In this document: positions 1 through 13,633 of the stretch, in pieces | How positions within the stretch are numbered: position 1 is the first letter of the stretch | Layout of the letters: each line of letters begins with the position of its first letter | NCBI GenBank assembly: GCA_964425145.1 | Contig: CAYRLQ010000098.1 | Coordinates: forward strand, 1-13,633 | Origin: an uncultured Nitrospiraceae bacterium | Lineage (GTDB): Bacteria > Hydrogenedentota > Hydrogenedentia > Hydrogenedentales > SLHB01 | Direction of reading: 5' to 3' | DNA: 13,633 nt | The notes under the pieces: generated by a model | What the model was told of the DNA's origin: nothing | Databases searched by the model: none | The model's input: the letters and a program-made list of their open reading frames with translations, nothing else | Translations under genes and position numbers: made by a program

Positions 1-232
1 GTCATTACGCCCATTTTACCACCAATCAACTTCGCACTATGCACTGTGCACCGTGCACCGTACACTGTCATTACGCCCATATTGCCACCAATCAACTTCG
101 CACTATGCACTGTGCACCGTACACTGTCATTACGCCCATTTTGTCACCAATCAACTTCGCACTATGCACTGTGCACCGTGCACTGTCATTACGCCCATTT
201 TACCACCAATCAACTTCGCACTATGCACTGTT
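1..232. repeat. Tandem direct repeat with a 59-bp unit, at least 4 copies (66, 59, 59 and 48 bp partial). The array begins at the window edge and probably continues upstream of it.
   Basis: Read directly. The unit gtcattacgcccattttaccaccaatcaacttcgcactatgcactgtgcaccgtacact recurs at 1, 67, 126 and 185 with a few substitutions and one 7-bp internal duplication (gcaccgt) in copy 1. There are no unique spacers between copies, so this is not a CRISPR array. Confidence 0.9.
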
Positions 233-932
233 AAACCCGGACCGCCAAAAAATGGAAATAAGGCAGGAACAGGAATTCCAGACCGTCAGTTAGTTCGACT
301 AACTCAGGTACGGCGAAGATCGAGTCGGGAAGGGCCGACTCCAAGGGCCGGGCCGGGTGAACGCCGCAGGCCACACGGAAGCCGGCGCGCATCAATTCCC
401 CGCCCAACTTGCGTCCGATTTCGATGTCGGCGCCATCGGCTGCAAGGGTCTCAGCAAGCCGTCCCATTTGTCCGTGTTCGGTCGGATGCTCCACCGCCCC
501 GCTGTAATCAGGCTCGGCGGCGGCGATAAGATGCCCGCCGGGAGCGAGAACGCGCCTGAGCTCTGCGAGAATCTCCTTCAAGGGGCGCGCCCAGAGGAAG
601 AACATCTGCGTGAAGACCAGATCGAATGTTGCGTTTTGAAAAGGCAGCGACTCGGCCTGGCCGGCAACGCGCCTCCCGGCGGCGAGACGCAGCGTGCCGA
701 TCTCAGAGTCCACACCTACCGCGAAGCCCCGCGCGCGGCGATCGAGTTCGCAAAGGGTCTCGCCAGTGCCCGCGCCAAGGTCCAGCACACGCCTCTTGGA
801 GGCGATGTTGACCTTGCGCAGCAGCCTGCTGCGCTCGCCGGCAAACCAGGCTGCCTGGCGCCGATAAATCTTTTGCAGGTCCGCGGGCTTCAAGGACTTC
901 CCCTCTAACAACCGGGAACTGACGACTAGCAA
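231..932 (-). CDS. Class I SAM-dependent methyltransferase (Methyltransf_11/25-like), last gene of the operon. TTG start as given in the ORF track; the exact start is uncertain.
   Basis: Translation contains the glycine-rich SAM-binding motif I VLDLGAGTGE, the acidic post-I residue in GVDSE, and LAPGGHLIAAAEP (motif III/post-II), a typical Rossmann-fold MTase layout. A 7-bp gap separates it from the upstream gene. Confidence 0.7.
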   Translation of the reverse strand: MLVVSSRLLEGKSLKPADLQKIYRRQAAWFAGERSRLLRKVNIASKRRVLDLGAGTGETLCELDRRARGFAVGVDSEIGTLRLAAGRRVAGQAESLPFQNATFDLVFTQMFFLWARPLKEILAELRRVLAPGGHLIAAAEPDYSGAVEHPTEHGQMGRLAETLAADGADIEIGRKLGGELMRAGFRVACGVHPARPLESALPDSIFAVPELVELTDGLEFLFLPYFHFLAVRV

Positions 933-939
933 CTATCAG

Positions 940-2775
940 CTACCGTCCGCCACCGGCGCAGGCGCAGGCGCAGGCGCAACCGGCGCAGGCACAGCCTCCT
1001 CCGCCTCCGCCTCCGCTGCCGCCGCCCTCGGACAGTTGTGAGAGAAAGTCGCTGGTGAACTGGTCGAAGCGGGAGAGGTCGAGGCCGCCTTTGGCGGTTC
1101 TGCCTAGCGAGTCGAGGCTGCCCGCCAAGCTGCTACACGTGTTCTCCAGGCGCCCGGCCAGCGAGTTCGCCACATCGCCGAAGGACGTAGCCGGTGTGCT
1201 TGGGCCACGGGATGCACCGGCTCGCCCGGGCGCGGCAGTGTAGGTTCCGTGGCCCCGGCCGTACCACCAGTGGGGATAATAGTGGTGGCCACCGCCGACA
1301 TCCCGGAGCTCGCGGTCCCAGTGGTCCTCCAGCATCAGCCAGCCCAGGTGCTTGTCCACGCGCTTGAAGCCGGCCTCATAGCCGGCCTCGGTCTTTACCT
1401 GCTTCCAGGCCCGGGCGACGATGCGCTTGTAATAGTCACGGGTCTGCTTCAGGTCGAATCCGGCCATGGCGCCCATGGTAAACTTGATGAGGCAATCGAA
1501 CGCATCGTCCAGGTTTATCTCCTCGACCGTTTTCCCTTGCTGGGCCTGGAATGCGTGTATAAAGCCCTTTTCATAGTGCCTGAGCTTCCCGCGCTTTCCG
1601 TCGGGCCGCGTCCAGATGTCCCCTGGCGATTCCTCGCCGGTCACCTCCAGCTTGAGCGGTTTGTCATAGCGGACGCGGACCACGCCCTTCTTGGCCAGGC
1701 CGAAGATGACCATGGTCAACACCTTGTGAAGCGGCACATCGAGGAGGATGGCCGCCTCGACGGAGGTGAGGCCGCGCTTTATTCCACCGCCCTCGATGCA
1801 GAGCTCTGCGGGGAAGTAGCGCTCCTTGCGCCGCGCGCGGAGGATGTACGCCAGTACGCCGAGTGCCACTACGATCGGATACAGGCATAGGTGAAATGTG
1901 GGGCTACGGTACATGCCATAACCCAGAATGACCGTCAGGACGATGAGCACGGACCAGCCGGTCCCGCGAGTGGTCTGGAAGAAGATGATGGCGAAAATCA
2001 CGATGAGCGCAATGCCGCTGATAACCTGGGCTTCCCGGCTGTCCTTGAACCACCTGTTGAAGAGGCCCCAGAGGGTATCCTTTCGCACCGCGCTGACGTA
2101 GCGCTTGGGAAAGGATACGCCGAACACGTGTTTCCCGGTCAGGCGCACGGTGCGCACCCAGGCCGCCGAGACAACCTCCTCGCCTTCCATGACACCCTTG
2201 GCGCTGAATTCCTGGCCCTTCTTATGCCAGAGGATGTCGTCTTTCACGGCTGCATAGTCGGCCTTGGGTATGGGCAGCTTGTAGCGCAGAATCAACTTGG
2301 TATTGCCCACAACGTACTGAGACCCAAACCAGGTGGGCGTAAAACGGAAGGATGCCAGTTCGGGGTTGGTCGTGTCCTGCCAGACCATGTTGCGCTCGCG
2401 CGCGGTAAATTCGAAGACACCGGTTTGGCCCGGGCGGACGGTCTGCGGTCCCAGATGAATCTCGTAGCCGCACCCCTTGGGTTTGAGGTAGGTGGAAATC
2501 TTGATGCTGCTACGCGGAAGCGGCTGGCCGTTGACGCTCGCGCTGCCCGGTGTGTGCGGCGCCATGTTGGGCATGCCGATGTCGACGATGTCGATGGGAT
2601 GGGCGCCGCGGTTGCAACTGAACGTCAGCTTGTAATAGACCAGGGCCGAGCCGTCCTCCTCGATGGTTACGGTGACCTGCGCCTCCGGGACGGAGAATTT
2701 GTATTCCGCGGCCAGCGCGGCACGGGCAGGCATAAGGCCCAGGACCAAAAGTATAACGGGCGCGAGTCCCTTCAT
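940..2775 (-). CDS. DUF2207-like integral membrane protein: signal peptide, large extracytoplasmic domain, 3 TM helices, then a cytoplasmic tail ending in poly-Gly followed by a (Cys-Ala)n repeat.
   Basis: N-terminal signal peptide MKGLAPVILLVLGLMPARAALA. Hydrophobic helices at AQVISGIALIVIFAIIFF, WSVLIVLTVILGYGMY and LYPIVVALGVLAYIL. C-terminus ...SEGGGSGGGGGGGCACAGCACACACAGGGR. The overall architecture and Gly-rich tail are as in Pfam DUF2207 proteins; this family call is from memory, not a search. Its ATG lies 9 nt after a GGAGGG that forms the last codons of the upstream rSAM gene. Confidence 0.5.
   Translation of the reverse strand: MKGLAPVILLVLGLMPARAALAAEYKFSVPEAQVTVTIEEDGSALVYYKLTFSCNRGAHPIDIVDIGMPNMAPHTPGSASVNGQPLPRSSIKISTYLKPKGCGYEIHLGPQTVRPGQTGVFEFTARERNMVWQDTTNPELASFRFTPTWFGSQYVVGNTKLILRYKLPIPKADYAAVKDDILWHKKGQEFSAKGVMEGEEVVSAAWVRTVRLTGKHVFGVSFPKRYVSAVRKDTLWGLFNRWFKDSREAQVISGIALIVIFAIIFFQTTRGTGWSVLIVLTVILGYGMYRSPTFHLCLYPIVVALGVLAYILRARRKERYFPAELCIEGGGIKRGLTSVEAAILLDVPLHKVLTMVIFGLAKKGVVRVRYDKPLKLEVTGEESPGDIWTRPDGKRGKLRHYEKGFIHAFQAQQGKTVEEINLDDAFDCLIKFTMGAMAGFDLKQTRDYYKRIVARAWKQVKTEAGYEAGFKRVDKHLGWLMLEDHWDRELRDVGGGHHYYPHWWYGRGHGTYTAAPGRAGASRGPSTPATSFGDVANSLAGRLENTCSSLAGSLDSLGRTAKGGLDLSRFDQFTSDFLSQLSEGGGSGGGGGGGCACAGCACACACAGGGR
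955..1014. repeat. Hexanucleotide microsatellites inside the 3' end of the DUF2207 gene. (GGCGCA)n at 955..993 encodes the Cys-Ala repeat. (CTCCGC)n at ~994..1014 encodes the poly-Gly run.
   Basis: Read directly: ggcgcaggcgcaggcgcaggcgcaaccggcgcaggcacagcc followed by tcctccgcctccgcctccgct. Confidence 0.8.
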
Positions 2776-2781
2776 GGTCTC

Positions 2782-4191
2782 TTAACCCTCCGATGGACTG
2801 TCAGTGCACAGGAAGCGATCGCCGTCACTGAGCGGACAGCCCGAGCCGCACACCTCGAAGTCCGGACACTCGCGGCACGCGTCAGGGGCTGCATCGCGGC
2901 TGCGAACCTCGCGAAAAAGCGGGCTGTTCCAAATCGACTTCCACTCATCGTCCAGAATGTGGCCGACGGGCTTGTAGTAGCTCTGACATGGGATAACCCG
3001 CCCGTCGGGCTCGATGCAGATGTTGTACTCCGCGGCTGTGCAGCGCTTGAAACCCAGGCCGAAGGTCGTCGGGTTCAGTGTACAGTAGTGAGTGGGGGTG
3101 TACCAGATGAAACGGAGGCCGAGCTTTTCTGCCGTGCCCGTGACCTCGCCGAGAATGGGCTCGAGGTCCGCTTCCTCGATGCCCAGCCCCGATTGGGGGG
3201 CCTTGCCCGTGTATATCAGGGAGTTCATGGCGAATTGCCGCACGCCCAACTCCTTCAGGAACTCGATGGTCTTATCGATCGCTTCAACATTCAGCCTGCA
3301 CAGCGTCGTGTTGGTCACCAGGTAGAGGTCGTCATCGATGGCGTTCTTGATGCCCTGCACCGTCTCCTCGAACGCGCCGGGGCAGCCGACCATCTGGTCG
3401 TGGACCTGCTTATCGTGGCTCTCGATAGTGATTTGCACGTGGTCGAGGCCGGCGGCGCAGAGCTTCCTGACGTACTCGCGGTCAGCGAGCTTCCTGCCAT
3501 TGGTGAGGAGTCCGGTGATAATGCCGATGTCCTCGGCCCGCTCAGTGAGTTCCACGAGATGGGGGCTCAGCGTGGCCTCGCCGCCCGTGAAGCACACGTG
3601 GGGTACGCCTATGCCCCACAGCTTTTCGAGAACATGCTTCCACTCTCTCACGCCGAGAGGCTTTACTTCGTCCGGCCGGCGGGCGACATAGCAGTGCAGG
3701 CACTTGTTGTTGCAGGCGTACGTCAGCGCCAGGTCGGCACGGTAGGGCGCCGAGACCTTCCGACCGAAAGGCGGCACAGTGGATACACCCAAGTTGGCGA
3801 CCGGACAGGCGTCCTCCGTGGTCTCCAACTGCTCTACGACCTTGAGGACCTTCCCGTAGTCGCGCGCCACCTCCTCGTGGGCGGCCCGGTAGACCTTACG
3901 CACCGCCGCCACCGCCTCATCCCTGCTCTTGCCGTCGAGGACCTGCTTCATGAGCGCCACGGCGGTTGCGTTGAGGTGCAGCACACCGGACGCGTTCACA
4001 GCCAGAAGGCCCGAGCCGTCCGGGTCCACGCGCAGGTGCAGGCGCAGATAGCGGTCGGCCAATTCGCGGCGGTAATGATAGATGCCGGGCTGCACAGCCT
4101 CGGCACCGGCGAAGAGCCGTTGGAACTTCTCACGCAGGCCTACCATTTGGGTGCCTCCTCGATCTGGTACTCGGATTGGCAGAAAGGGCAT
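2782..4191 (-). CDS. Radical SAM / SPASM-domain enzyme with a fused N-terminal PqqD-like RRE (RiPP recognition element); a peptide- or protein-modifying maturase. Alternative start at 4146 (MVGLREK...), which overlaps the upstream stop in ATGGTAG.
   Basis: CX3CX2C radical-SAM cluster motif (ALTYACNNKCLHCYV). C-terminal SPASM signature CRECPDFEVCGSGC (CX2CX5CX3C), preceded by CTAAEYNICIEPDGRVIPC and followed by FLC. The N-terminal ~120 aa (LRVDPDGSGLLAVNASGVLHLNATAVALMKQVLDGKSRDEAVAAV) match the PqqD/RRE fold pattern. The same domain order is found in AlbA/SuiB/CteB-type enzymes. Confidence 0.85.
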   Translation of the reverse strand: MPFLPIRVPDRGGTQMVGLREKFQRLFAGAEAVQPGIYHYRRELADRYLRLHLRVDPDGSGLLAVNASGVLHLNATAVALMKQVLDGKSRDEAVAAVRKVYRAAHEEVARDYGKVLKVVEQLETTEDACPVANLGVSTVPPFGRKVSAPYRADLALTYACNNKCLHCYVARRPDEVKPLGVREWKHVLEKLWGIGVPHVCFTGGEATLSPHLVELTERAEDIGIITGLLTNGRKLADREYVRKLCAAGLDHVQITIESHDKQVHDQMVGCPGAFEETVQGIKNAIDDDLYLVTNTTLCRLNVEAIDKTIEFLKELGVRQFAMNSLIYTGKAPQSGLGIEEADLEPILGEVTGTAEKLGLRFIWYTPTHYCTLNPTTFGLGFKRCTAAEYNICIEPDGRVIPCQSYYKPVGHILDDEWKSIWNSPLFREVRSRDAAPDACRECPDFEVCGSGCPLSDGDRFLCTDSPSEG

Positions 4192-4487
4192 TTCACGAAG
4201 ATCGCCCCGGCCCGAACCGAAACGCTCTTTGCGTCGAGGGCCGCGCCGCAGCTCTTACAGTTGAGTTCTTCGAGTTGCACGTCGCCGGACAGGTCGATCT
4301 TTCGGGTAACGGTGACCTTGGTCTCTGGCACTTTCATCCGCAGGAAGTAGATCACGGCTATCCCCGCACCGGTCAGGATGCCGCCAAGAATCCAGCGCGG
4401 CCAAATGCCGCTGCTGGCTGCTGCAACGCAGAACATGAGGCCTAATAGCACTAACAAGCCGGCGAAAAGATACCCGACAATCTTCAT
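4140..4487 (-). CDS. Small membrane protein with two N-terminal TM helices and a C-terminal zinc ribbon (CxxC-x18-CxxC).
   Basis: Hydrophobic segments IVGYLFAGLLVLLGLMFCVAAA and ILGGILTGAGIAVIYFL. Zinc ribbon CKSCGAALD...KCPFCQ. ATG at 4487, 17 nt after the stop of the SPFH gene. Its stop overlaps the 4146 start of the rSAM gene. Confidence 0.6.
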   Translation of the reverse strand: MKIVGYLFAGLLVLLGLMFCVAAASSGIWPRWILGGILTGAGIAVIYFLRMKVPETKVTVTRKIDLSGDVQLEELNCKSCGAALDAKSVSVRAGAIFVKCPFCQSEYQIEEAPKW

Positions 4488-4504
4488 CAGGACACCGCTC
4501 CGCG

Positions 4505-5698
4505 TTACGAATTACCAGGTTGGTCCGGCGCAGTTGGATGCACCGGCGGCGCCTCGAGGTTCTGGCCGCAGTCGGGGCAGAACTTGCTGCCCGCGGGGCT
4601 GATCGCCTGGCAGGCAGGGCATACCTCCGGCCCGATCTTAGCACCGCAACTCGAGCAGAACTTGCTATTGGGGTCGATGTCCGCCCCGCATTTGGGGCAC
4701 TTGGCCGTCGTCTCGCCGCTCAGGGGCTTGCCGCAGCCGGCGCAGAACCTGGCGGCGGGCGCATTCTGGTGCTTACAGGCCGGGCAAATCGAGACGCCCG
4801 TGGCCTGGGCCGCGCCGAGTTGCCCCCCCATCACGCCGCCAAGCATCCCGGGCATCATGTGGCCTACGCCGAAGCCGAGGCCCAGCCCCATGCCGGCGCC
4901 CATGATCTGCCCGGCGCCGCCCTCACTCTCGGCGGCCTTCTCGAGCGTGTCGAAGGTGCGTTTCATGCGGTACTTGTCCTCGCCCATGATGTCGATGTCC
5001 GCGCGCGCCGAGAGCGACTGTTTGAGCTTTACTACCGTCGCGTCATCTTCGGGCACGTCGATGGACATCAGCAGGAAGTCGGTGATCTCGAGGCCGTACT
5101 TGGTGAAATTCTCGGCCGTGCGGGCCTTACCGACGGCGGAGGCTTCCTCGAGGTAGGCGGCGATCTCGACGACTGACACCCGCTGCTTGATGATCACCTC
5201 GGCGATGTAATCCTTGAGCCGGGTGGTAATCGCTCCCTTCAGGTAGGTGCTGATGTCCTCGGTGGTGTAGAGTCGGTTTTGGCCGCAGATCACCGTTACG
5301 AAGGTCTTGGAATCGGCCACGCGCATGCCGAAGATGCCGAAGCAGCGCACAGGAACGACCACGTTGAACCTGGGGTCCATCACCTGGATGGGCGCCCGGG
5401 TGCCGAACTTGATGTCTGGAACAGTGCTCTTACTGACGAAGTAGACCTCGGCCGTAAAGGGCGTCTGGCCACCGAAAGGCAGAGCGATCAGTTCCCTAAG
5501 ACCCGGCAAATTGGCCGTGCTCAGCGTGTGCCGTCCAGGCCCGAACACGTCCAGCCCACGGCCCTCCCGGAAGATGACCGCATCCTGGGTTTCGTTCACG
5601 ATCACTTGGGTGGCGGTCGACAAGTTGTCCTGCGGGAACTTCCAGACCAGTTCGCGCGGGCTACCCTCGAACTTGACCCTGTCGATGAATGCGGCCAT
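4505..5698 (-). CDS. SPFH/band-7 (stomatin/prohibitin/flotillin) family protein with a Gly/Met-rich linker and three tandem C-terminal double zinc ribbons; COG4260 / Bacillus subtilis YdjI-like.
   Basis: N-terminal VWKFPQDNLSTATQVIVNETQDAVIFREGR and the following β-rich SPFH core resemble YdjI-type proteins (from memory). A low-complexity GAGMGLGLGFGVGHMMPGMLGGVMGG linker follows. Three repeats of CPxC-x10-12-FCxxCG follow: CPACK...FCAGCG, CPKCG...FCSSCG, CPACQ...FCPDCG. Strong SD AAGGAGGG lies 6 nt upstream of the ATG. Confidence 0.7.
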   Translation of the reverse strand: MAAFIDRVKFEGSPRELVWKFPQDNLSTATQVIVNETQDAVIFREGRGLDVFGPGRHTLSTANLPGLRELIALPFGGQTPFTAEVYFVSKSTVPDIKFGTRAPIQVMDPRFNVVVPVRCFGIFGMRVADSKTFVTVICGQNRLYTTEDISTYLKGAITTRLKDYIAEVIIKQRVSVVEIAAYLEEASAVGKARTAENFTKYGLEITDFLLMSIDVPEDDATVVKLKQSLSARADIDIMGEDKYRMKRTFDTLEKAAESEGGAGQIMGAGMGLGLGFGVGHMMPGMLGGVMGGQLGAAQATGVSICPACKHQNAPAARFCAGCGKPLSGETTAKCPKCGADIDPNSKFCSSCGAKIGPEVCPACQAISPAGSKFCPDCGQNLEAPPVHPTAPDQPGNS

Positions 5699-5735
5699 TT
5701 CCAGCCCTCCTTGTGTCGTTGCCAGTTGCTAGTGG

Positions 5736-6263
5736 TCAGGTAGCGGCAGGTGACGACCAGCCACCCGCAACCTCTCCTAGGCATTTCTTTCGTTGATCGA
5801 ACTGGCGCTCAAATGTCGCCAACGCGGCCTCGAGCCGGTCTGGACCCATCTCCAGCACTACATCGGCGGCGCCCTCGACCTCGGCAAGCTGTTCAAACAT
5901 GCAGCGGTCGTAGGCCAGAAGCCGCGCCAGGTCCTGCTGGCGTATTTTGACCTTGGCGGAAATCGCGCTGTGACCGTAATCGGCGAAGCGCACCTTGTTG
6001 GCGGCCTTGTCGACCAGGTTGAGCAAACGCTCGAGAGCGGCGAGCCCTGCGCCCGCGCGGACATCTTCGCCCGCCGCCTTGATGGCCTTGTTCACCGGTG
6101 TTTTGGCCTCAGACAGCCGCCGGGCGATCTCATCGCGAATCATCTTATCAGCTTCCCAGATGGTGGTATTCTCGAGATATCCCCGGAACACAGGGACCTG
6201 TGCCATTTGCTCGGCGAGCCATCCCCGGTCGGCTTTCATCCGCTGCAGAAGCTTGTCTTCCAT
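5736..6263 (-). CDS. Hypothetical all-alpha-helical cytoplasmic protein (175 aa), first gene of the operon. Start moved to the internal ATG at 6263, which is preceded by GGGAGGAGG.
   Basis: The ORF track gives 5736..6323, but the ATG at 6263 (MEDKLLQRMK...) has a near-perfect Shine-Dalgarno GGAGGAGG 6 nt upstream. No recognised domain; predicted helical and charged. It lacks the PspA/IM30 N-terminal signature. Confidence 0.5.
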   Translation of the reverse strand: MEDKLLQRMKADRGWLAEQMAQVPVFRGYLENTTIWEADKMIRDEIARRLSEAKTPVNKAIKAAGEDVRAGAGLAALERLLNLVDKAANKVRFADYGHSAISAKVKIRQQDLARLLAYDRCMFEQLAEVEGAADVVLEMGPDRLEAALATFERQFDQRKKCLGEVAGGWSSPAAT

Positions 6264-6399
6264 TTCAGACCTCCTCCCGGAATGGGCCGGCGCCTCCGGT
6301 TGCGAAACGACGAGCACGAGCACGTATGGATTGACACGTCTAGTGTCCCCGGCACTCGATTACTCCACAAGCACCCCGTCGCGCCATGGAACCGATCCC

Positions 6400-6445
6400 T
6401 CATAATTTTAACCTATTTGCAGACAAATAACTATAACCCTCGCTT
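6400..6445 (-). promoter_or_regulatory. Candidate sigma70-like promoter region for the six-gene operon, in an AT-rich island between the murA stop and the operon's first gene.
   Basis: Minus strand reads ...agggttatagttatttgtctgcaaataggttaaaattatgagg...; a TAAAAT -10-like hexamer with an upstream T-rich region, but no clean TTGACA at ideal spacing. The only AT-rich patch in the 208-bp leader. Confidence 0.25.
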
Positions 6446-6471
6446 TGTGAAATATCCCTGGGACAAGCAAG

Positions 6472-7725
6472 CTATTCGTGCAGGCGCTCGATGTGGCCGC
6501 CCAAAGTTGCCAAGCGCTCTTCAATACGTTCGTAGCCCCGGTCAAGGTGGTACACGCGCGAGATGACCGTCTCGCCCCTTTCGGCGGCGAGTCCGGCGAT
6601 GATGAGGGCAGCGCTTGCTCGCAGGTCCGATGCCATGACGGGCGCGCCGCTCAGATGGGAGACGCCGCGGACGATGGCCGCGTTGCCGTCCAGGTGAATG
6701 TCAGCGCCCATGCGTTTGAGTTCCGCCACTTGCATGAACCGGTTTTCGAAGACGGTTTCCTTGATAACGCTGACGCCTTCGGCCAGGCAAAGCAGGGCCA
6801 TCATCTGGGCCTGAAGGTCCGTGGGAAACCTTGGAAACGGCCCGGTCGCGACATCCACGGCACGCAGCGCGTTGGGCGCGGAAGCCCGAATTCGAGCGCC
6901 GTGCACTTCGACCTCGGCGCCGGCGGCCTCGAGTTTCTCGAGGAAGTTTGGCAAGTGGGTCGCGTCGGCGTTTTCCACAATCACATCGCCGTGCGTGGCC
7001 ACACCGGCAAGAAGAAATGAGCCCGCCTCGATACGGTCCGGGATCACGGTGTGTTCGGCGCCGCCCAGCGCGCCCACGCCGGTAATTGTGATCTGGTCCG
7101 CGCCCGCGCCGGAGATACGCGCGCCCAGCGCGTTGAGAAACCGGGCCAGGTCTACGATCTCGGGCTCACGGGCCGCATTGCCCAGACGTGTGACCCCTTC
7201 GGCCCGGCACGCCGCCATCATGAGGTTCTCCGTCGCGCCGACGCTCGGGAACTTGAGGTGGACATTCGCACCTTTGAGCCGTCCTTCGGCTATAACATAG
7301 CCGTCCTCGATGGCAATTCGGGCCCCAAGTGCTTCAAGTCCTTTGAGGTGAATGTCGACCGGACGGGTGCCGATGGCGCAACCACCCGGCAGCGACACGT
7401 GCGCGCGGCCAAACCGCCCCAGCAACGGCCCCAGCACGAAAAAAGTCGCCCGCATCTTCCGCACCAGGTCGTAATGAGCCTTCTGGGAAGTAATCGTGGA
7501 TGCGTCGAGCGTCGCCGTGTGCTGCACAAACTTGCTGGTGACGCCCATAGATGACAGGAGCTTTTCCATCGAATAGACGTCGGCCAGGCAAGGGACATTG
7601 TGCAGCACGCACGGTTCCTCGGCCAAGATGGTCGCCGCCATCAGGGGCAGGGCCGAGTTCTTCGCACCGCGCACGGGCACGCTACCTCGCAACGGCGTGC
7701 CGCCCTGTATCCGAATCTTATCCAC
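6472..7725 (-). CDS. murA: UDP-N-acetylglucosamine 1-carboxyvinyltransferase (MurA), GTG start.
   Basis: 417 aa. N-terminal [28 protein letters not shown], the active-site Cys loop [16 protein letters not shown], and full-length EPSP-synthase-like fold-family pattern. Confidence 0.9.
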
Positions 7726-7969
7726 AGTCGATTTCTCGTCGGCCGAATTGATCTGATGTAACGTCCTCTGAGATTACCATAGCACGGCGCAGGAGGCCTC
7801 CATTTTCCGCACCCGGTGCTTGAGAACGACGGCAAAGAGTCTCACGCAAAGGCGCAAAGCTCGCGAAGTTCCCCGATCTATTGATGTCTTGGCGTCTTTG
7901 CGCGATTTTCTCCATCGCGCTCGCAAACCCGTCATAGCACATAGTCAACAAAGGTGTGAGCCCAAAGCA

Positions 7970-7987
7970 CTCGCTTCGGGCCTGAAG
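7970..7987 (-). terminator. Weak candidate hairpin downstream of secG (stem CGCTTC/GAAGCG, 6-nt loop).
   Basis: Inverted repeat cgcttcgggcctgaagcg. On the minus strand it is followed by agtgctttggg, with only a few U residues, so intrinsic-terminator character is weak. Confidence 0.2.
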
Positions 7988-8002
7988 CGTCGCCTGGTTC
8001 GC

Positions 8003-8617
8003 TCAGGCGCCGCCTGCTGAGTCCTCGGGCTGCTCGGCGGGTGTAGGTTGTTGTTCAGCCGGGACCGGCTCGGGCGCCACGGTGACGGTCACCGTGCCAG
8101 GCGGCTCGGTGGTTTCCCCAGGTGCGGCCCCTTCGGTGGGAGGCACTTCCGGCGGTACGGTAACGGTCACTTCGCCGGCCTGCTCAGCGGCTCCCTCAGG
8201 TGGCGGGGGCACCGCTTTTTCCCCCGGGACAGCCTCGGAACCCTCGACGGCCGTGCCGAGGTCATCGAGCATGTCGTCGAGGCTTTCTCCTAATACGCCC
8301 ATCTCTCCCAGGACATCGGCCTCTTCGACCTTGTCCGGGGCGATGCCCTTGCCAAGGCGCCCCGATACCAGGGACATGGCCAAGGCGAGGATCATGAACA
8401 CGGCGGCCATGACGTGGGTCAGCCGAACGGGCAGACTCTGGCTTGCCCGGGGACCGAACACCGTGTCCGAGCCGGGGCCGATGCCAAATGCGCCGGCGAA
8501 GCCGGTCCCTTTGCCCTTTTGCAACAGGACAATCACGATGAGGCCGGCGCAACTGGGCACGTAGAGGATCAACATCAGCCACCACAACGTTTCCCAACGC
8601 CAGATGAATTCCCACAT
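8003..8617 (-). CDS. secG: Preprotein translocase subunit SecG with an unusually long (~110 aa) Pro/Thr/Glu/Val-rich low-complexity C-terminal extension.
   Basis: SecG signature LLQKGKGTGFAGAFGIGPGSDTVFGPRASQ....THVMAAVFMILALAMSLV, with two TM helices. Position immediately after tpiA (27-bp gap) matches the conserved tpiA-secG synteny. SD AAGGAAAA lies upstream of the ATG at 8617. Confidence 0.75.
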   Translation of the reverse strand: MWEFIWRWETLWWLMLILYVPSCAGLIVIVLLQKGKGTGFAGAFGIGPGSDTVFGPRASQSLPVRLTHVMAAVFMILALAMSLVSGRLGKGIAPDKVEEADVLGEMGVLGESLDDMLDDLGTAVEGSEAVPGEKAVPPPPEGAAEQAGEVTVTVPPEVPPTEGAAPGETTEPPGTVTVTVAPEPVPAEQQPTPAEQPEDSAGGA

Positions 8618-8644
8618 ACCAACTGTTTTCCTTATGCTGTTTGA

Positions 8645-9400
8645 CTAAACCGCCGCCTTGACGATGGCGGCGAAACTATCGGCCTTGAGCGAGGCGCCCC
8701 CGACCAGCGCGCCGTCCACATCGGGTTTGGCCATCAACTCGGCCGCGTTATCCGGTTTAACGCTGCCGCCGTATTGAATTCGGACTTGCTCCGCAACGGC
8801 TTCCCCGAACTCCTCGGCCACAAGCCCCCGCACAAACGCGTGGGCCTCCTCGGCCTGCTCCGGGGTTGCAGTAACACCAGTGCCGATGGCCCAGACGGGT
8901 TCATATGCGATGGCGAGCTTGTCGAAATCGGTTCCAGCCAGGTTGACGAGGCCATCAGCGACTTGGCGCCTCAACACGTCGTTCATCCTGCCGCCTTCAC
9001 GCTCCTCAAGGCTCTCGCCGACGCAGAACATAACCTTCAACCCAGCAGCCAGGGCGAACTTAACCTTCTCGTTCAAGAAGGCGTCGGATTCCTTGAAATA
9101 CTGGCGACGTTCGCTATGGCCGACAATGGTCCACGTGCATCCCACGTCCAGCAGCATCTGCGGTGAAATTTCACCCGTATAGGCGCCGCTTTCCTTGGTG
9201 TAACAGTTCTGGCCGCCCATCTCGACGTTTGACCCCCTGAGGGCTTCACCGACGGCATACAGCGCCGCAAAAGTCGGGCAAACCACCACATCAACGGTCG
9301 AGACGTCCCGAGCGAGCGGCTTGATGGCATTGACCAGGCCGACGGCGTCGCCGACCCGCAGATTCATCTTCCAATTTCCAGCGACAAGCGGTTTTCTCAC
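8645..9400 (-). CDS. tpiA: Triosephosphate isomerase. Start moved to the GTG at 9400; the ORF-track start at 9529 is an upstream in-frame extension.
   Basis: The conserved TIM N-terminus RKPLVAGNWKMN begins directly after GTG (9400..9398), which is preceded by GAAGGG. Catalytic and loop motifs present: NAIKPL..., IVGHSERR, VIACVGE-like FCVGESLEERE, IAYEPVWAIGTG, and the QYGGSV phosphate-binding loop. Confidence 0.9.
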   Translation of the reverse strand: MRKPLVAGNWKMNLRVGDAVGLVNAIKPLARDVSTVDVVVCPTFAALYAVGEALRGSNVEMGGQNCYTKESGAYTGEISPQMLLDVGCTWTIVGHSERRQYFKESDAFLNEKVKFALAAGLKVMFCVGESLEEREGGRMNDVLRRQVADGLVNLAGTDFDKLAIAYEPVWAIGTGVTATPEQAEEAHAFVRGLVAEEFGEAVAEQVRIQYGGSVKPDNAAELMAKPDVDGALVGGASLKADSFAAIVKAAV

Positions 9401-9536
9401 GGCAATACCCTTCGCTAAACAGCTACGACAGCCCTGCAAATCCTGCCCGAATCGTAGCACAACCTCTCGGAACAACGCAAGATGAGTTGCTGGCAGTCCA
9501 CTGCTGGTGGCCGGTTTTTCAACCGGCAACTATTAA

Positions 9537-9761
9537 CTAAGTACCGCTCAACACAATTAAGATCACACAATGGGGCGGAGTATATCCCCAGCACGTCATT
9601 GCGAGGAGCGAAGCGACGCGGCAATCTCGCTCCGGCCAAGTCCTTGCACTTAAGGAGATTGCCGCGCTCCCTGCGGTCGCTCGCAATGACGGGGGCGGTG
9701 GTTGCCTCCCGCAAGCCGCTGAACCCGATTTGTGGCCTTATTTGTGTTGAGCAGTACTAAG
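9537..9761. mobile_element. MITE-like non-coding element: 25-bp terminal inverted repeats (CTAAGTACCGCTCAACACAATTAAG ... CTTATTTGTGTTGAGCAGTACTAAG) enclosing an internal long imperfect palindrome (arms 9595..9628 and 9655..9690).
   Basis: Read directly. Outer arms match 22/25 as reverse complements. Inner arms share perfect 11-bp (gtcattgcgag) and 13-bp (cgcggcaatctc) segments around an internal mismatch bubble. No plausible ORF; sits in the 434-bp divergent intergenic region. Confidence 0.4.
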
Positions 9762-9834
9762 TGCGAGGCGCGAAGTGCTGAGTGCGCGAAGGTGGAGCGT
9801 CGGCGTACCGCCCATGCACTGAAGGAGAGGAACG

Positions 9835-11316
9835 ATGAGAAAATGGAGCTTGATGATTCTATTGACAGTGCTCGTTGCCATTGCGAGCCAGGCCGAGCTG
9901 CAGAATGTCGAGGCTGGTCCGGTTATACAGCGCCGACTCGACGTGAAGCTCGTGGATCCGCTCAAAGGCGCGTTCGAGGGGGCCGAGACGACCCTCGAGA
10001 ACCAAACAGACCTTGCCGTGACCGTGTATAATAACAACCTGGCGCTCGTGCGGGACCGGCGCAAGGTCGAGCTGTATCCGGGCCATGTTTCGTTGCAGTT
10101 TGCGGATGTCGCACAACAAATCCGGCCGGAAACGGTGAGCCTGGAGTCAATTTCGGAGCCGGGAAAGCTGCATATCCTGGAACAGAACTATGAGTATGAC
10201 CTGATGAGCCCGTCAAAGTTGATGGAGAAATACGTTGGGAAACCGGTGCGGCTGGTGAATTTCAGCACGGAGATCGGGTTCACCGAGGTCGAGGCGCAAC
10301 TGTTGAGCATCAATGAGGGCCCGATCTACCAGGTGGGCGATGAAATCTACCTTGGACATCCGGGCCACGTGGTGCTGCCGGAAATCCCCGAGAACCTGAT
10401 CGCGAAGCCGTCGCTGATCTGGCTCCTGGACAATGATGGCACGGACCATGAGATCGAGGTGACATACCTGACCGGCGGCATCGACTGGCGTGCGGATTAC
10501 GTGATCACGCTGGACCGCGACGAGACCACGATGGACCTGACGGGCTGGGTGACCCTCAAGAATCAATCAGGCGCGACGTATACCAATACGCGGTTGAAAG
10601 TGGTCGCGGGCGAGGTACACATCGCGCAACCGGCCGTCAGAGAAGCCTATGGCCGCGGCGGGCGGATGCTCGCGGCCAAGGTCGCTCCGATGCGCGAGGA
10701 AACGTTTGCGGAATATCATCTGTACACACTCCCGCGCCGGACCACGATCAAAGAGAACCAATCCAAACAGGTGAACCTGCTCAGCGCTGCGGGAATTCGC
10801 GCGAAGAAGGTATACGAGTTTCGCGGCAACGAATCGTTCTATAGCGGACCCGTGCCACCCCTGAAGGACCAGAAAGTGGCAGTGTTTCTCAAATTCACTA
10901 ACAAGAAGGAGAATCAATTGGGCATTCCCCTGCCGGCGGGCGTGATGCGGATTTACCAGGAGGACAGCGAGGGGATGCGGCAGTTCGCGGGCGAGGATCG
11001 CATCAAGCATACGCCCAAGGACGAGGATGTGAGGCTGCGGATGGGCAACGCGTTCGATGTGGTCGGCGAGCGCGTGCAGACCGATTACGAGCGTGTCGCG
11101 GAAAAGGTGCACGAATCGGCCTTCGAGATCAAAATCCGCAACCACAAAGAAAACGACATTACCGTGGATATCGTCGAACCGATGACGGGCGATTGGAAGA
11201 TCCTGAGCAAGTCCCACGACTTCGTGAAAAAAGATGCGCGCACGGCCGTGTTCTCCGTCCCCGTGGCCCAGGACGGCGAAGCGGTGGTGACTTACCGCGT
11301 CCGTGTCAGGTATTAG
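9835..11316 (+). CDS. Secreted DUF4139/DUF4140-domain protein (TIGR02231 'mucoidy inhibitor MuiA'-like family).
   Basis: Signal peptide MRKWSLMILLTVLVAIASQA; SD GGAGAGG 5 nt upstream of the ATG. Long β-rich protein with motifs recalled from DUF4139 proteins: VTYLTGGIDWRADYV, MDLTGWVTLKNQSGATYTNTRLKVVAGEV. Family call is from memory. Confidence 0.55.
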   Translation: MRKWSLMILLTVLVAIASQAELQNVEAGPVIQRRLDVKLVDPLKGAFEGAETTLENQTDLAVTVYNNNLALVRDRRKVELYPGHVSLQFADVAQQIRPETVSLESISEPGKLHILEQNYEYDLMSPSKLMEKYVGKPVRLVNFSTEIGFTEVEAQLLSINEGPIYQVGDEIYLGHPGHVVLPEIPENLIAKPSLIWLLDNDGTDHEIEVTYLTGGIDWRADYVITLDRDETTMDLTGWVTLKNQSGATYTNTRLKVVAGEVHIAQPAVREAYGRGGRMLAAKVAPMREETFAEYHLYTLPRRTTIKENQSKQVNLLSAAGIRAKKVYEFRGNESFYSGPVPPLKDQKVAVFLKFTNKKENQLGIPLPAGVMRIYQEDSEGMRQFAGEDRIKHTPKDEDVRLRMGNAFDVVGERVQTDYERVAEKVHESAFEIKIRNHKENDITVDIVEPMTGDWKILSKSHDFVKKDARTAVFSVPVAQDGEAVVTYRVRVRY

Positions 11317-11412
11317 ATAGTTTCTGCTGCGGAAAGGCCAACGGATTGGGACAAGGGTTCTTTTACTATCATCCTGAGCGACGCGAAAGGTCTCGAAACA
11401 CCGTAAACCCTT

Positions 11413-11432
11413 GTGAAATCGAGGTTTTTCAC
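11413..11432 (+). terminator. Candidate hairpin (GTGAAA/TTTCAC stem, U-containing loop) downstream of the DUF4139 gene. A larger 9-bp stem (acaagggtt / aacccttgt) with a 46-nt loop lies at 11351..11414.
   Basis: Inverted repeats read directly. No clean U-tract after the stem, so terminator function is uncertain. Confidence 0.2.
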
Positions 11433-11464
11433 TGCTCTTAGAATGACCGTGAGGGGTGGCTTTG

Positions 11465-12109
11465 ATGAGAACGCTGACAGCGGCGCAGATGCGCGAGGCT
11501 GACAGGCGATGTATTGAAGATATCGGCATTCCCGGCGCAGTGTTGATGAATAGTGCCGGGGGCGCGGTATTCCGCGAGATCGATCGAGGACCGGTCGGCG
11601 TGGTTTGCGGAAAAGGCAATAACGGCGGGGACGGGTACGTGGTCGCGCGGCTGGCCATACTGGCAGGATTTGAAACCCGTGTAGTACTGCTGGCGAGGCC
11701 CGATGAGATTCGGGGTGACGCGGCGACGTTTATGCAGGTGTACCAGAATCTGGGCGGCGAGATTCTGAGCGTAATCGAGGAGGACGCGGCGGAGGAGGCC
11801 GTTGCGGGATTGAAAGATTGCGCCGTGTTAGTGGACGCGCTCTTGGGAACAGGGATAACCGGCACGGTGCACGGACCAGCTCGTGCAGCCATCGAGGCGT
11901 GGCCGGCCGTGCGGACGATTGCGGTGGACTTGCCCTCGGGGCTCAACGCGGACACTGGTGAGGTTTGCGGATGTTGCGTCAAGGCTGATGTGACCGTGAC
12001 TTTTGGGTTCGCTAAGAAGGGTTTTGAAAATCCCACAGCCCGGAACTATATCGGCCGCTTGGTCGTGGCGGACATCGGCATTCCGGAAGTCTGCGCCGAA
12101 GGGTTGTAA
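11465..12109 (+). CDS. nnrE: NAD(P)H-hydrate epimerase (YjeF N-terminal domain only; not fused to the ADP-dependent dehydratase domain).
   Basis: Diagnostic YjeF_N motif VVCGKGNNGGDGYVVAR. SD GAGGGG lies 8 nt upstream of the ATG at 11465; the track's 11456 GTG start is less well placed. The protein is only ~214 aa, so no C-terminal carbohydrate-kinase-like dehydratase domain is present. Confidence 0.75.
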   Translation: MRTLTAAQMREADRRCIEDIGIPGAVLMNSAGGAVFREIDRGPVGVVCGKGNNGGDGYVVARLAILAGFETRVVLLARPDEIRGDAATFMQVYQNLGGEILSVIEEDAAEEAVAGLKDCAVLVDALLGTGITGTVHGPARAAIEAWPAVRTIAVDLPSGLNADTGEVCGCCVKADVTVTFGFAKKGFENPTARNYIGRLVVADIGIPEVCAEGL

Positions 12110-12185
12110 ACCACGGCTACGGCCGGTGCGGCATTACCGTAATCCGATTGGCCACGAAAACACACCAATCAATAGGCTGAGAACA

Positions 12186-12227
12186 CCCTCAAACGGGTTT
12201 GAGGGCGCCCCCAGCCGCATTTGAGGG
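12186..12227 (+). other. Hairpin ccctcaaacgggtttgaggg (8-bp stem) followed by a third copy of tttgaggg; possible terminator/attenuator or REP-like element between nnrE and thpR.
   Basis: Read directly. Followed by cgccccc rather than a U-tract. Confidence 0.2.
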
Positions 12228-12267
12228 TCTTTGCGCACGTGAAACCGACAGCTAATTCAGAGGGGTC

Positions 12268-12822
12268 GTGCGGACATTTATTGCGATCGAGCTGCCGAAA
12301 GCGGTGAAAGAGGCACTCGGGGCGCTGAGCAACCGGTTGCGTCGGTCTGGGGCGAAGGCGACCTGGGTGCAGCCTGAGAACGTACACCTGACGCTCCGGT
12401 TTCTGGGGGATGTGTCGGAAAGCGTCGTAAACAAGCTGGGCGAGCGCCTGGCCGTGGCCTACCAGGATTTGGAACCATTCACGTTGTCGATGGCGCGCAC
12501 GGGCGCGTTTCCGAACCTGCGCAGGCCGCGTGTGATTTGGGTGGGTGTGGGGCCGCTCGAGGGCGGACTGGCCGAGGCGCAGGCCATTGCCGAGGAAGCC
12601 GCGGTGTGGGTGGGGCTTGCACCCGAGAAGAGGCGGTTCCAGCCGCACTTGACCGTGGCGCGCATCCGGGACGCACGCGAACTTGGCGGCCTACCGATGT
12701 GCCTGGCCCAGGAAGCAGATTTCGCTGGTGGTGAATTCGTGGTGGAGAATGTGTCATTATTCTCGAGTCGGTTAACCCCGAATGGCCCCGTTTATCGGCG
12801 ATTAAAAGAGTTTTGTCTGTGA
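12268..12822 (+). CDS. thpR: RNA 2',3'-cyclic phosphodiesterase (2H phosphoesterase, LigT/ThpR family), GTG start.
   Basis: Two H-x-T-x motifs in the right context (HLTLRFLG and HLTVARI). N-terminus RTFIAIELP is typical of ThpR. 184 aa. Confidence 0.8.
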   Translation: MRTFIAIELPKAVKEALGALSNRLRRSGAKATWVQPENVHLTLRFLGDVSESVVNKLGERLAVAYQDLEPFTLSMARTGAFPNLRRPRVIWVGVGPLEGGLAEAQAIAEEAAVWVGLAPEKRRFQPHLTVARIRDARELGGLPMCLAQEADFAGGEFVVENVSLFSSRLTPNGPVYRRLKEFCL

Positions 12823-13094
12823 ACGATATCTTCATTCGAGCGGCGCGCAACTTACTGACGCTGTACATGCTGCTGATCTTGGTGCGCTGGGTGGCGTCCT
12901 GGATCGAGTTTGATATGATGGCGCCGCGCTGGCGCTGGATTCCCCGGTTGACTGACCCGCTGATAGACCTAATGCGCCGATTGTTGCCGTCGATGGGGCC
13001 AATGGACTTCGGACCGATAGCGGCGTTGTTCCTGGTATGGCTGGTCAGGCTCCTTTCGTGGAACTTGCTGCTGAGCGTGCAGTTCGGCCAATAG
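12819..13094 (+). CDS. yggT: YggT family (Ycf19-like) small integral membrane protein. Start taken at the GTG at 12819 that overlaps the thpR stop (GTGA).
   Basis: Two hydrophobic helices flanking the conserved DPLIDLMRRLLP...DFGPIAALFLVWLV pattern of YggT proteins. 4-nt GTGA start/stop overlap with thpR suggests coupling. Confidence 0.6.
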   Translation: MNDIFIRAARNLLTLYMLLILVRWVASWIEFDMMAPRWRWIPRLTDPLIDLMRRLLPSMGPMDFGPIAALFLVWLVRLLSWNLLLSVQFGQ

Positions 13095-13126
13095 GGGGCA
13101 ACGTAAACTGGGGGGCTGCCTGCGGT

Positions 13127-13633
13127 ATGAGTGCTGAACACGGCGACTTCGACAGGGAACGCGATCGTATGGTAAGCGGGCAGATTGTCGCCCGGGGTGT
13201 GAAGGAGCCCCGCCTGCTCGAGGTCATGCGGCGCGTGCCCCGGCACCGTTTTGTGCTACCAGAATACCGCCACCAGGCCTATGTGGATCACCCGGTGCAA
13301 ATTGGCTGCGGGCAAACCATTTCCCAGCCGTACATGGTAGCCCTGATGACCGAATTGCTTGAGTTGACGCCGGAGGACCGGGTGTTGGAAATCGGTACCG
13401 GGTCTGCGTATCAAACGGCGATCTTGGCCGAGTTAGCCAAGGAGGTGGTGACCATCGAGCGCCATGAACCCCTGGCTGATCGCGCGCGCGAACGGCTCGA
13501 GGAACTCGGGTACGACAACGTGGTTGTGCTGGCTGGGGACGGCACGCTGGGCTGTCCGGAGCACGCACCGTTTAACGCCATCCTGGTAACAGCGGCTGCA
13601 CCGCGCATCCCCTCCTCGTTGCGCGACCAGATG
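13127..13633 (+). CDS. pcm: Protein-L-isoaspartate O-methyltransferase, 5' partial (169 codons; runs off the window end). Not in the ORF track because no stop is reached.
   Basis: Hand translation from the ATG at 13127: MSAEHGDFDRERDRMVSGQIVARGV...IGCGQTISQPYMVALMTELLEL...VLEIGTGSAYQTAILAEL...VVLAGDGTLG. All are canonical Pcm motifs (GQTISQP, EIGTGSGYQ, GDG). Confidence 0.85.
   Translation, partial: MSAEHGDFDRERDRMVSGQIVARGVKEPRLLEVMRRVPRHRFVLPEYRHQAYVDHPVQIGCGQTISQPYMVALMTELLELTPEDRVLEIGTGSAYQTAILAELAKEVVTIERHEPLADRARERLEELGYDNVVVLAGDGTLGCPEHAPFNAILVTAAAPRIPSSLRDQM

Follow-up and report, generated by a model that had tools for sequence, protein, structure and literature searches.

Radical S-adenosylmethionine (rSAM) enzymes with a SPASM domain are known chiefly for the peptide natural products, destined for export, or the few cofactors that they make. 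Several of them join the sulfur of cysteine to a carbon atom: AlbA makes links to C-alpha, and links to C-beta or C-gamma are made by PapB, by NxxcB and by QhpD, which acts on the protein subunit QhpC (PMC10114670). Another SPASM enzyme, anSME, oxidises Cys in a folded protein (PMC10114670). Here we describe a gene cassette from a 13,633-nucleotide stretch of DNA, hereafter the window (contig CAYRLQ010000098.1, positions 1 to 13,633, assembly GCA_964425145.1, entered as an uncultured Nitrospiraceae bacterium and placed by GTDB in the Hydrogenedentota). In this cassette an rSAM/SPASM enzyme is encoded beside a large membrane protein that ends in a tail of strictly alternating Cys and Ala. The tail is conserved at the level of the peptide and is tightly linked, in both directions, with the enzyme set. 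From this comparative evidence we think it probable that the tail is the core peptide, encoded in cis, of a dedicated post-translational modification system.

The tail protein is encoded at 940..2775 of the minus strand, and its translation is a membrane protein of 611 amino acids (aa) ending in ...LSQLSEGGGSGGGGGGG-CACAGCACACACAGGGR, with the stop codon TAG at 940-942. The tail itself, CACAGCACACACAGGGR (C595-R611, 943..993), has the form (CA)2-G-(CA)4-GGGR, with six Cys at alternate positions, and it follows a Gly-rich linker (G584-G594, 994..1026) whose length and composition differ among homologues. Both elements had been reported in a preliminary description of the window, and both are confirmed by translation. 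The hexanucleotide repeats that were said to encode them were also recovered by Tandem Repeats Finder, as (GGCGCA)x4 at 955-978, which on the coding strand reads TGC-GCC and gives the Cys-Ala run, and as (CCTCCG)x3.2 at 998-1016, which reads GGA/GGC and gives the Gly run. The Cys-Ala reading frame, on which that description laid weight, is the one found in the homologues: 118 of the 120 best, at 35-65% identity, end in (CA)2-3-G-(CA)4-GGGR. When 21 and 97 sequences were aligned, no change was seen from C595 to G610 and hardly any at R611, where the columns as a whole had a mean identity of 43-50%. In the larger alignment, with a mean of 43%, Ala is as strictly kept as Cys, and conservation of this strength over 17 consecutive C-terminal residues lies far beyond chance.

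A search that could not be biased by the tail was made with the protein stripped of linker and tail as the query, against 1.84 billion representatives at E<=1e-3. It returned 660 relatives, and the canonical tail is present in 109 of the 150 best representatives; the other 41 are mostly fragments or near-variants, with a Gly-to-Ser hinge or a shortened ...SCACAGGGR. The nearest named homologues belong to Candidatus Hydrogenedentes/Hydrogenedentota. As a separate observation, genomic stretches that code for CACAGCAC or ACACAGGGR number at least 599, and 301 of them were confirmed as relatives of the tail family; those beyond the 301 may be truncated genes or other tail-bearing families.

The 85 tails collected from 81 loci are encoded by 85 distinct DNA versions, in which every position varies synonymously; Cys is encoded by TGC 357 times and by TGT 232 times, Ala by all four codons and Arg by all six. 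Because these tails all differ in their DNA while the peptide is fixed, the comparison indicates purifying selection on the tail peptide. The expectation of the preliminary description that copy number would be polymorphic and prone to slippage did not hold. Homologues of >=90% identity form ten clusters, with about 60 complete tails in all, and in nine of the ten the Cys-Ala blocks are identical; the remaining cluster varies by +/-1 CA unit, and two of the ten vary by +/-1 Gly. Slippage at the tail does occur, but seldom and within narrow bounds. The block that adjoins GGGR always has four units in one major type of tail (type A) and three in another (type B), and variation in copy number is confined to the first block, where it typically amounts to one unit and spans 3-5 units in type B. 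The hexamer repeat in the window is merely a preference for the codons TGC and GCC.

These data decide on the possibility that the tail has no function and is low-complexity sequence produced by a hexanucleotide microsatellite prone to slippage, or that it is an artefact of assembly or frame. The perfect (GGCGCA)x4 and (CCTCCG)x3 repeats in the window, the one variable cluster among ten and a frameshifted database version (P0259) could be cited for it, but it is refuted by a peptide that is invariant across phyla while its synonymous codons are fully scrambled, by the absence of variation in the nine other near-identical clusters, and by the use of the same reading frame in >200 independent assemblies. 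Tail DNA read in another frame, as strings of (Leu-Cys)n or (Arg-Leu)n, was seen in P0259, in locus L103 (~4049) and in locus L110 (~1547). Frameshifted assemblies or over-called overlapping open reading frames (ORFs) of the tail repeat thus exist in public data; the frame of the window is correct.

The gene next to the tail gene (2782..4146, minus strand) encodes an enzyme of 454 aa that combines a PqqD-like RiPP recognition element (RRE; RiPP, ribosomally synthesised and post-translationally modified peptide) with radical SAM and SPASM domains. Its open frame reaches 4191, but the most likely start is the ATG at 4146, because a GGAGG is present and the stop codon of the preceding gene overlaps this ATG (AAATGGTAG), as in locus L081. 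The Pfam matches are Radical_SAM (8.5e-24, 85 bits), SPASM (2.4e-12, 47.4 bits) and, at aa 62-117, PqqD (PF05402; 6.5e-6, 26.8 bits against a cutoff of 23.4). The motifs CNNKCLHC, CX12GX4C and CX2CX5CX3C are present together with a final C, which gives the full set of SPASM cysteines. This order of domains, RRE, rSAM and full SPASM, is the one that characterises maturases acting on peptides. Among solved structures the closest are SkfB (3.6e-22), PqqE (3.9e-21) and CteB (9.5e-7), and there is a weak match to the rSAM enzyme GDGT/MAS, which couples lipids through C-C bonds (1.4e-7). The enzyme falls below every NCBIfam equivalog cutoff, as do its orthologues, with bit scores (cutoffs) of 122 (500) for AhbD, 119.5 (381) for PqqE, 86.4 (300) for SkfB, 86.5 (265) for MftC and 77.5 (850) for AlbA; a type B orthologue is matched by the AlbA model from end to end. 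The tail gene lies directly downstream, as had been noted, starting 6 nt past the TAA of the rSAM gene, and a GGAGGG within the last rSAM codons bears out the translational coupling that had been proposed, with a Shine-Dalgarno sequence in the end of the rSAM gene.

In order to examine forward linkage, the proteins of the window were compared by tblastn with 80 genome loci, counting genes on the same strand and within 8 kb. The rSAM gene is found near the tail gene in 70 of the 80, in two differing gene orders, and an orthologue of the methyltransferase (MTase) that ends the cassette is found in 50. Where the rSAM gene is missing, the contig in most cases breaks off on the side concerned. When all same-strand ORFs of 84 loci were clustered without supervision, the groups that emerged besides that of the tail protein were one made up of rSAM, pseudo-rSAM (a degenerate paralogue) and MTase, in 79 loci, and one of a small zinc-ribbon protein (zr), in 66. 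No further ORF group occurs in more than 11 of the 84 loci; in this clustering no peptidase, exporter or transporter, or further tailoring enzyme is conserved, and neither is any nearby gene for a metal transporter or chaperone, for lipid or cofactor biosynthesis, or for amine dehydrogenase.

The reciprocal test was a metagenome scan seeded on the rSAM enzyme alone, which yielded 60 loci that were screened with a general detector of alternating-Cys tails. An adjacent gene with such a tail is present beside all 27 rSAM relatives of >=40% identity that have >=2 kb on each side, and all 12 apparently tail-less loci at >=40% identity are cut off on the side of the tail gene. Enzymes below 40% identity (L142, L144) have no tail gene. 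The rSAM clade and the tail are mutually predictive. An alternating-Cys peptide in a further locus, L141, was considered as a member of the family and rejected. There, on a metagenomic contig of 34% GC, an ORF of 82 codons at 5749-5997 ending in ...YSDCDCDCDCQGTDCSECGGGDCSDCNCTSDTND lies directly upstream of a distant rSAM/SPASM gene, whose product is 27% identical to the window enzyme, and the adjoining peptide has an alternating Cys-Asp core, ...YSDCDCDCDCQGTDCSECGGGDCSDCNC..., so that it looks like a free-standing RiPP precursor. If so, alternating Cys-X cores occur also as ordinary RiPP-like precursors, an analogy that favours the substrate reading of the tail.

The layout of the tail protein agrees with a role as substrate. 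After a signal peptide (aa 1-~22, 2710-2775) come an extracytoplasmic beta-sandwich domain (aa ~25-235, 2071..2703), three transmembrane (TM) helices (aa 247-319, 1819..2037) and a cytoplasmic globular domain (aa ~330-505, 1261..1788) with a conserved EGGGIKRGLT..EAA.LL motif; a flexible C-terminal region, the Gly linker and the tail complete it, all on the minus strand. The 97 homologues were used to build an AlphaFold2 model. It has good confidence over residues 25-505, with a mean predicted local distance difference test score (pLDDT) of 83, and shows the signal helix, the beta-sandwich ectodomain, TM helices at 247-269, 274-290 and 292-319, and the globular domain. The sequence RARRKERY follows the third TM helix, which by the positive-inside rule would place the C-terminal half of the protein in the cytoplasm; by topology the tail, the rSAM enzyme, the MTase and the zinc ribbon would then all be cytoplasmic. 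The last ~80 residues are arranged like a RiPP precursor, with an amphipathic leader-like segment, a variable Gly/Ser linker and then the invariant core. The leader-like segment (aa 530-581, 1033..1188) comprises two amphipathic helices with the motifs TSFGDVA.S.AG..EN and LDLS..D..T. and with conserved columns at D534, V535, G541, E544, L567, S568 and D571; low pLDDT in the model suggests that it is flexible. Its moderately conserved, amphipathic motif F-[GA]-x-[VF]-A-x-[SA]…G…[EQ]-[NT] recurs in related form in all three types of tail, A, B and C, and the segment could serve as the element recognised by the RRE. No fused domain was found with Pfam in eight unusually long family members (677-948 aa). 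A PDB sequence search with the tail protein was set aside, the matches being spurious and of low complexity only.

The label DUF2207-like, given to the protein in the preliminary description, stands as a statement of remote homology but not at the level of hidden Markov model matches. No Pfam family matches the tail protein at E<=0.01, and PF09972 and PF20990 do not match even at E<=10; no NCBIfam model matched it either. The control, E. coli YciQ, matches both PF09972 (N-domain) and PF20990 (C-domain). When the alignment of the tail family was compared by hhalign with an alignment of 24 sequences, YciQ relatives verified as DUF2207, the probability was 97.8% (E 9.3e-13, 287 co-linear columns); against YciQ as a single sequence it was 5% and not significant. 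The tail protein is thus a remote relative within the DUF2207 superfamily rather than a Pfam-level member. It shares with the DUF2207 family (YciQ; PF09972, PF20990) the signal peptide, beta-sandwich ectodomain, TM helices, cytoplasmic domain and Gly-rich C-terminal tail. The DUF2207 consensus ends in ...GGGGGGGGGGGW, a poly-Gly run that closes with Trp and lacks Cys, whereas the present subfamily adds a (CA)n core after its Gly linker. To our knowledge, DUF2207-type proteins, including YciQ, have no known function.

Taken together, comparative genomics strongly supports the reading of the tail as a putative substrate. The proposal of the preliminary description, that the tail is a tethered Cys-rich substrate of the adjacent SPASM enzyme, is favoured by the RRE, by linkage in 70 of 80 loci and in 27 of 27 reciprocal cases, by the predicted cytoplasmic topology and by the Cys-free tails of distant DUF2207 relatives; as that description had envisaged, the alignment of homologues shows the Cys repeat tail to be conserved and to co-occur with the rSAM gene. 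That the tail is the substrate, which chemistry it undergoes and what each accessory protein does are all inferred from these comparisons, and a modification of any kind, thioether formation included, is a prediction of comparative genomics.

In the mechanism that we propose, the RRE at the N-terminus of the rSAM/SPASM enzyme would dock on the leader-like segment, and the enzyme would then act on the core by 5'-deoxyadenosyl radical chemistry. The likeliest product would be a set of intramolecular thioethers from Cys sulfur to an Ala (or Gly) carbon, spanning the Gly hinge at the centre; we rank Cys-to-Ala bridges first because Ala is as invariant as Cys and because a Gly hinge lies between the two blocks. 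The result would be a compact, cross-linked ladder. The invariant Ala would be expected of a reaction partner or of a fit to the active site, and is unexpected for simple metal ligation. The MTase may then methylate the product at the free C-terminal carboxylate or at a remaining thiol, sites that are suggested because its matches include the carboxyl O-methyltransferase BioC. The modified tail would remain on the protein, since no protease or exporter is conserved in the cassette. At its most specific, the proposal is of an undescribed system of Bacteria and Archaea in which the rSAM/SPASM enzyme, assisted by zr, pseudo-rSAM and MTase, turns the invariant (Cys-Ala)n tail of a DUF2207-superfamily membrane protein, on the inner side of the membrane, into a polycyclic ladder of thioethers or else into a protein-derived cofactor or cluster site; we put this forward tentatively, at somewhat less than an even chance.

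Several observations weigh against the substrate reading or parts of it. The MTase is absent from 30 of the 80 loci and from the archaeal locus L098, so methylation would not be obligatory. Two loci, L033 and L043, have full flanks and yet no rSAM gene within the 8 kb examined. The top NCBIfam scores of the rSAM enzyme are those of the tetrapyrrole enzymes AhbD and NirJ2 and of PqqE, and because it reaches no equivalog cutoff of a thioether family its chemistry is not assignable by homology. The last ~100 residues of the tail protein are without a confident AlphaFold2 structure, and runs of Cys-X-Cys are also classic metal-thiolate ligands.

The main alternative builds on this last point. The tail would be a set of ligands for a metal or an Fe-S cluster, presenting 6-11 thiolates at the membrane face, and the rSAM and pseudo-rSAM proteins would be partners that assemble the cluster, transfer it or exchange electrons with it (NifB-like or scaffold-like), without covalent modification of the peptide. 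The alternating Cys-X-Cys pattern would suit such a role, as in CopY, where a C-terminal CxCxxxxCxC binds Cu(I) and Zn(II) (PMC12648655), and so would partners that themselves bind clusters or zinc (SPASM domains, zinc ribbon) and a pseudo-rSAM that retains the CX2CX5CX3C SPASM cysteines without the SAM cluster. The Ala positions of the tail are invariant, however, while the X of metal-binding CxC motifs is usually variable; the enzyme bears an RRE, an element for recognising peptides; a SAM-dependent MTase is frequent in the cassette; and no metal transporter or chaperone is conserved nearby. We regard a metal- or cluster-binding tail as unlikely, although it stands first among the alternatives. 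Next, and also unlikely, is a modification that does not cross-link the tail, such as conversion of Cys to formylglycine or dehydroalanine in the manner of anSME, epimerisation of Ala or Cys, or the loading of the thiols with a lipid or cofactor; the C-terminus would thereby become reactive or serve as a membrane anchor. For the oxidation of Cys in a folded protein by a SPASM enzyme there is a precedent in anSME (PMC10114670), the tail adjoins the membrane, and the weak match to GDGT/MAS (1.4e-7) would fit lipid chemistry. The tail, which consists only of C, A, G and R and has no Pro, nevertheless lacks the anSME motif C/S-x-P-x-R, no gene of lipid or cofactor biosynthesis is conserved in the cassette, and the fixed Ala positions and the Gly hinge would be left unexplained.

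It could also be supposed that the tail is modified and then cleaved off, releasing a small Cys-derived peptide or cofactor, with the 590-aa membrane protein in the part of an outsized leader or scaffold. There are parallels in PQQ and mycofactocin, which derive from the C-terminal portions of PqqA and MftA. The better NCBIfam matches of the enzyme include PqqE and MftC (119 and 86 bits), PqqE is its second-closest solved structure, and the order of leader, linker and core, with a Gly run before the core, resembles RiPP precursors of the cleaved type. We nonetheless think release of the tail very improbable. Across the 84 loci there is no conserved peptidase, transporter or further tailoring enzyme; the supposed leader is a large, independently conserved protein with an ectodomain and a cytoplasmic domain of its own; and to spend one protein of 600 aa on each molecule of product would be very costly. 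The reading of the tail as a modified core that stays on its protein is the one that we carry forward below.

Three types of tail can be recognised. Type A, (CA)2-3 G (CA)4 GGGR, goes with the gene order zr–rSAM–(pseudo-rSAM)–TAIL–MT and occurs in the present window, Hydrogenedentota, Armatimonadota, Planctomycetota, Elusimicrobiota and some Chloroflexota and Myxococcota. Type B, (CA)3-5 G (CA)3 GGGR, goes with the order zr–TAIL–rSAM–(pseudo-rSAM)–MT and occurs mostly in Anaerolineae and Chloroflexia, Edwardsbacteria and Cloacimonadota. Type C, G-CV(CA)2-S-(CA)4-S-(CA)3-S-GGAG, has 11 Cys, and its tail GCVCACASCACACACASCACACASGGAG is common to eleven metagenomic loci (L096-L101, L103, L106, L110, L117 and L136). 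The one type C locus with its genes listed, L098, has the order zr–TAIL–rSAM: at 3983-7320 it encodes the zinc-ribbon protein, the tail protein and the rSAM enzyme, and MTase and pseudo-rSAM are not among the ORFs listed for it. An archaeal EF-1alpha lies just upstream, and because this gene matches the EF-1alpha equivalog at 707 bits the locus is assigned to the Archaea. The cassette thus spans Hydrogenedentota, Armatimonadota, Planctomycetota, Chloroflexota, Elusimicrobiota, Myxococcota, Cloacimonadota and Archaea, and the family, of ~660 clusters at 50% identity, covers at least eight bacterial phyla plus Archaea. In every member the tail-bearing protein is a membrane protein of 520-650 aa. 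Some Chloroflexota carry two adjacent tail-bearing genes (L014, L021, L025 and L026). The idea that the second ORF belongs to a different family sharing the tail was rejected on inspection of L025, where the two genes (6043-7824 and 7896-9824) are tandem paralogues. In the same locus an ORF at 3804-4718, inserted between rSAM and pseudo-rSAM, resembles the Met_synt_B12 activation domain only weakly and below threshold (23.0 bits; cutoff 25).

The four cassette genes of the window are packed on the minus strand from 4487 to 231, with a 7-nt overlap, a 6-nt spacer and a 7-nt spacer between them. The first encodes zr (4140..4487), a membrane protein of 115 aa with two TM helices and a cytoplasmic CxxC...CxxC ribbon, and its stop codon makes the 7-nt overlap with the rSAM ATG, as it does in L081. 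The protein ends in YQIEEAPKW in the window and in YQ[IL]EE[AD]PKW across its orthologues, which include those in L081 and L083; it has only weak zinc-ribbon matches in Pfam and none in NCBIfam. The last gene, at 231..932, encodes a class I SAM-dependent MTase of 233 aa (Pfam Methyltransf_11, 1.8e-15), which starts at a TTG 7 nt past the stop of the tail gene. Its best NCBIfam matches, the DVU_1556 family, BioC and UbiE, are all below cutoff, and it stands at the 3' end in both gene orders. The pseudo-rSAM (~433 aa), which is often part of the cassette but is absent from the window and from its closest relatives, keeps an RRE-like N-terminus and the CX2CX5CX3C SPASM cysteines and lacks CxxxCxxC. 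Neither the tail protein nor zr nor the pseudo-rSAM reaches a curated threshold in Pfam or NCBIfam release 20, and as these distinctive proteins have no model, the genes are annotated only as 'hypothetical protein' and 'radical SAM protein'.

Around the cassette the window carries housekeeping genes (murA, secG, tpiA and genes for a YjeF_N protein and a LigT protein), and no RNA gene was found in it with Rfam or as a tRNA feature. Just upstream of the cassette, on the minus strand, lie genes for an SPFH/Band_7_1 protein with two C-terminal double zinc ribbons (4505-5698) and for a LIMLP_15305-like protein (5736-6323). These two genes and murA were considered as cassette members and rejected, being found in 0-1 of the 80 loci. 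A 59-nt tandem repeat at 1-245, with four copies of 89-95% identity and GCAC(T/C)GT sub-repeats, extends from the first base of the window to just after the MTase stop and may mark a contig end. It contains no inverted repeats and has no Rfam match, and it is not CRISPR-like, since all parts of the unit are conserved. Farther along, two long ORFs overlap on opposite strands; the one at 9835-11316 (plus strand) matches DUF4139/DUF4140, and the one at 10567-12036 (minus strand) has no match and is probably spurious in this GC-rich sequence.

If the substrate reading is right, the RRE, leader and core logic of RiPP systems appears to be extended here to a membrane protein that is large and widely conserved, at its cytoplasmic tail. 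A core of 17 residues that is nearly frozen across bacterial phyla would imply a chemically specific product that is needed by the cell, and a 17-mer of only Cys, Ala, Gly and Arg offers a sharply defined, testable substrate for new radical chemistry; links running from Cys sulfur to the Ala beta-carbon would amount to a lanthionine made by a radical route. The tail would be the first case of a RiPP-type core carried in cis by an integral membrane protein of large size, and its modification would provide the first functional or mechanistic clue to the DUF2207 superfamily. Full-text literature searches found nothing on the tail motif or on the cassette, which is undescribed within the resources searched.

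Among described systems, metallothioneins and CopY, with its CxCxxxxCxC, resemble the tail in having dense alternating Cys at a protein terminus (PMC12648655), but here X is an invariant Ala, the gene is linked to an MTase and to an enzyme with rSAM and RRE domains, and genes of metal homeostasis are not linked to it. The cassette is also like the uncharacterised rSAM/SPASM systems of the Haft type (the ACGX system TIGR04340, GeoRSP, SynChlorMet and the pseudo-SAM/SPASM family TIGR04347), which are defined by co-occurrence with repeat targets and sometimes include a pseudo-rSAM paralogue. The ACGX targets are Ala-Cys-Gly-X repeat peptides. There are weak matches to the models of these systems; the scores, however, are 50-118 bits against cutoffs of 400-525, and the tail protein and zr match no NCBIfam model. 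Like anSME, the enzyme would be a SPASM protein acting on Cys of a full-size protein, but anSME recognises C/S-x-P-x-R, makes a single formylglycine and has no RRE, whereas here an RRE is present and the motif is absent. QhpD and QhpC offer an rSAM-SPASM enzyme that puts several intra-protein Cys thioethers into a functional subunit that is not exported (PMC10114670). QhpC differs in that it is small, soluble and periplasmic, its links run from Cys to Asp/Glu and a quinone cofactor is present; the target here would be the cytoplasmic tail of a membrane protein in which only Cys, Ala and Gly are available, and there is no linkage to genes for amine dehydrogenase.

Sactipeptide and ranthipeptide systems (AlbA/subtilosin, SkfB, CteB/SCIFF, PapB/freyrasin) share with the cassette an enzyme with RRE, rSAM and SPASM domains encoded beside a Cys-rich substrate with leader and core, and the core of the tail, like that of SCIFF, contains 6 or more Cys. 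Their substrate is a free peptide of 40-80 aa, while the tail described here is the C-terminus of a polytopic membrane protein of ~600 aa; in its core Cys and Ala alternate strictly and without variation among bacterial phyla, it is accompanied by no protease or exporter, and the enzyme stays below every equivalog cutoff. The cassette has additional conserved partners in the TM zinc ribbon, the pseudo-rSAM and the MTase. The maturation of Cys-rich cores by rSAM/SPASM enzymes is already known, and what appears to be new here is a Cys-rich core fused in cis to a large membrane protein of the DUF2207 superfamily, in Bacteria and in Archaea.

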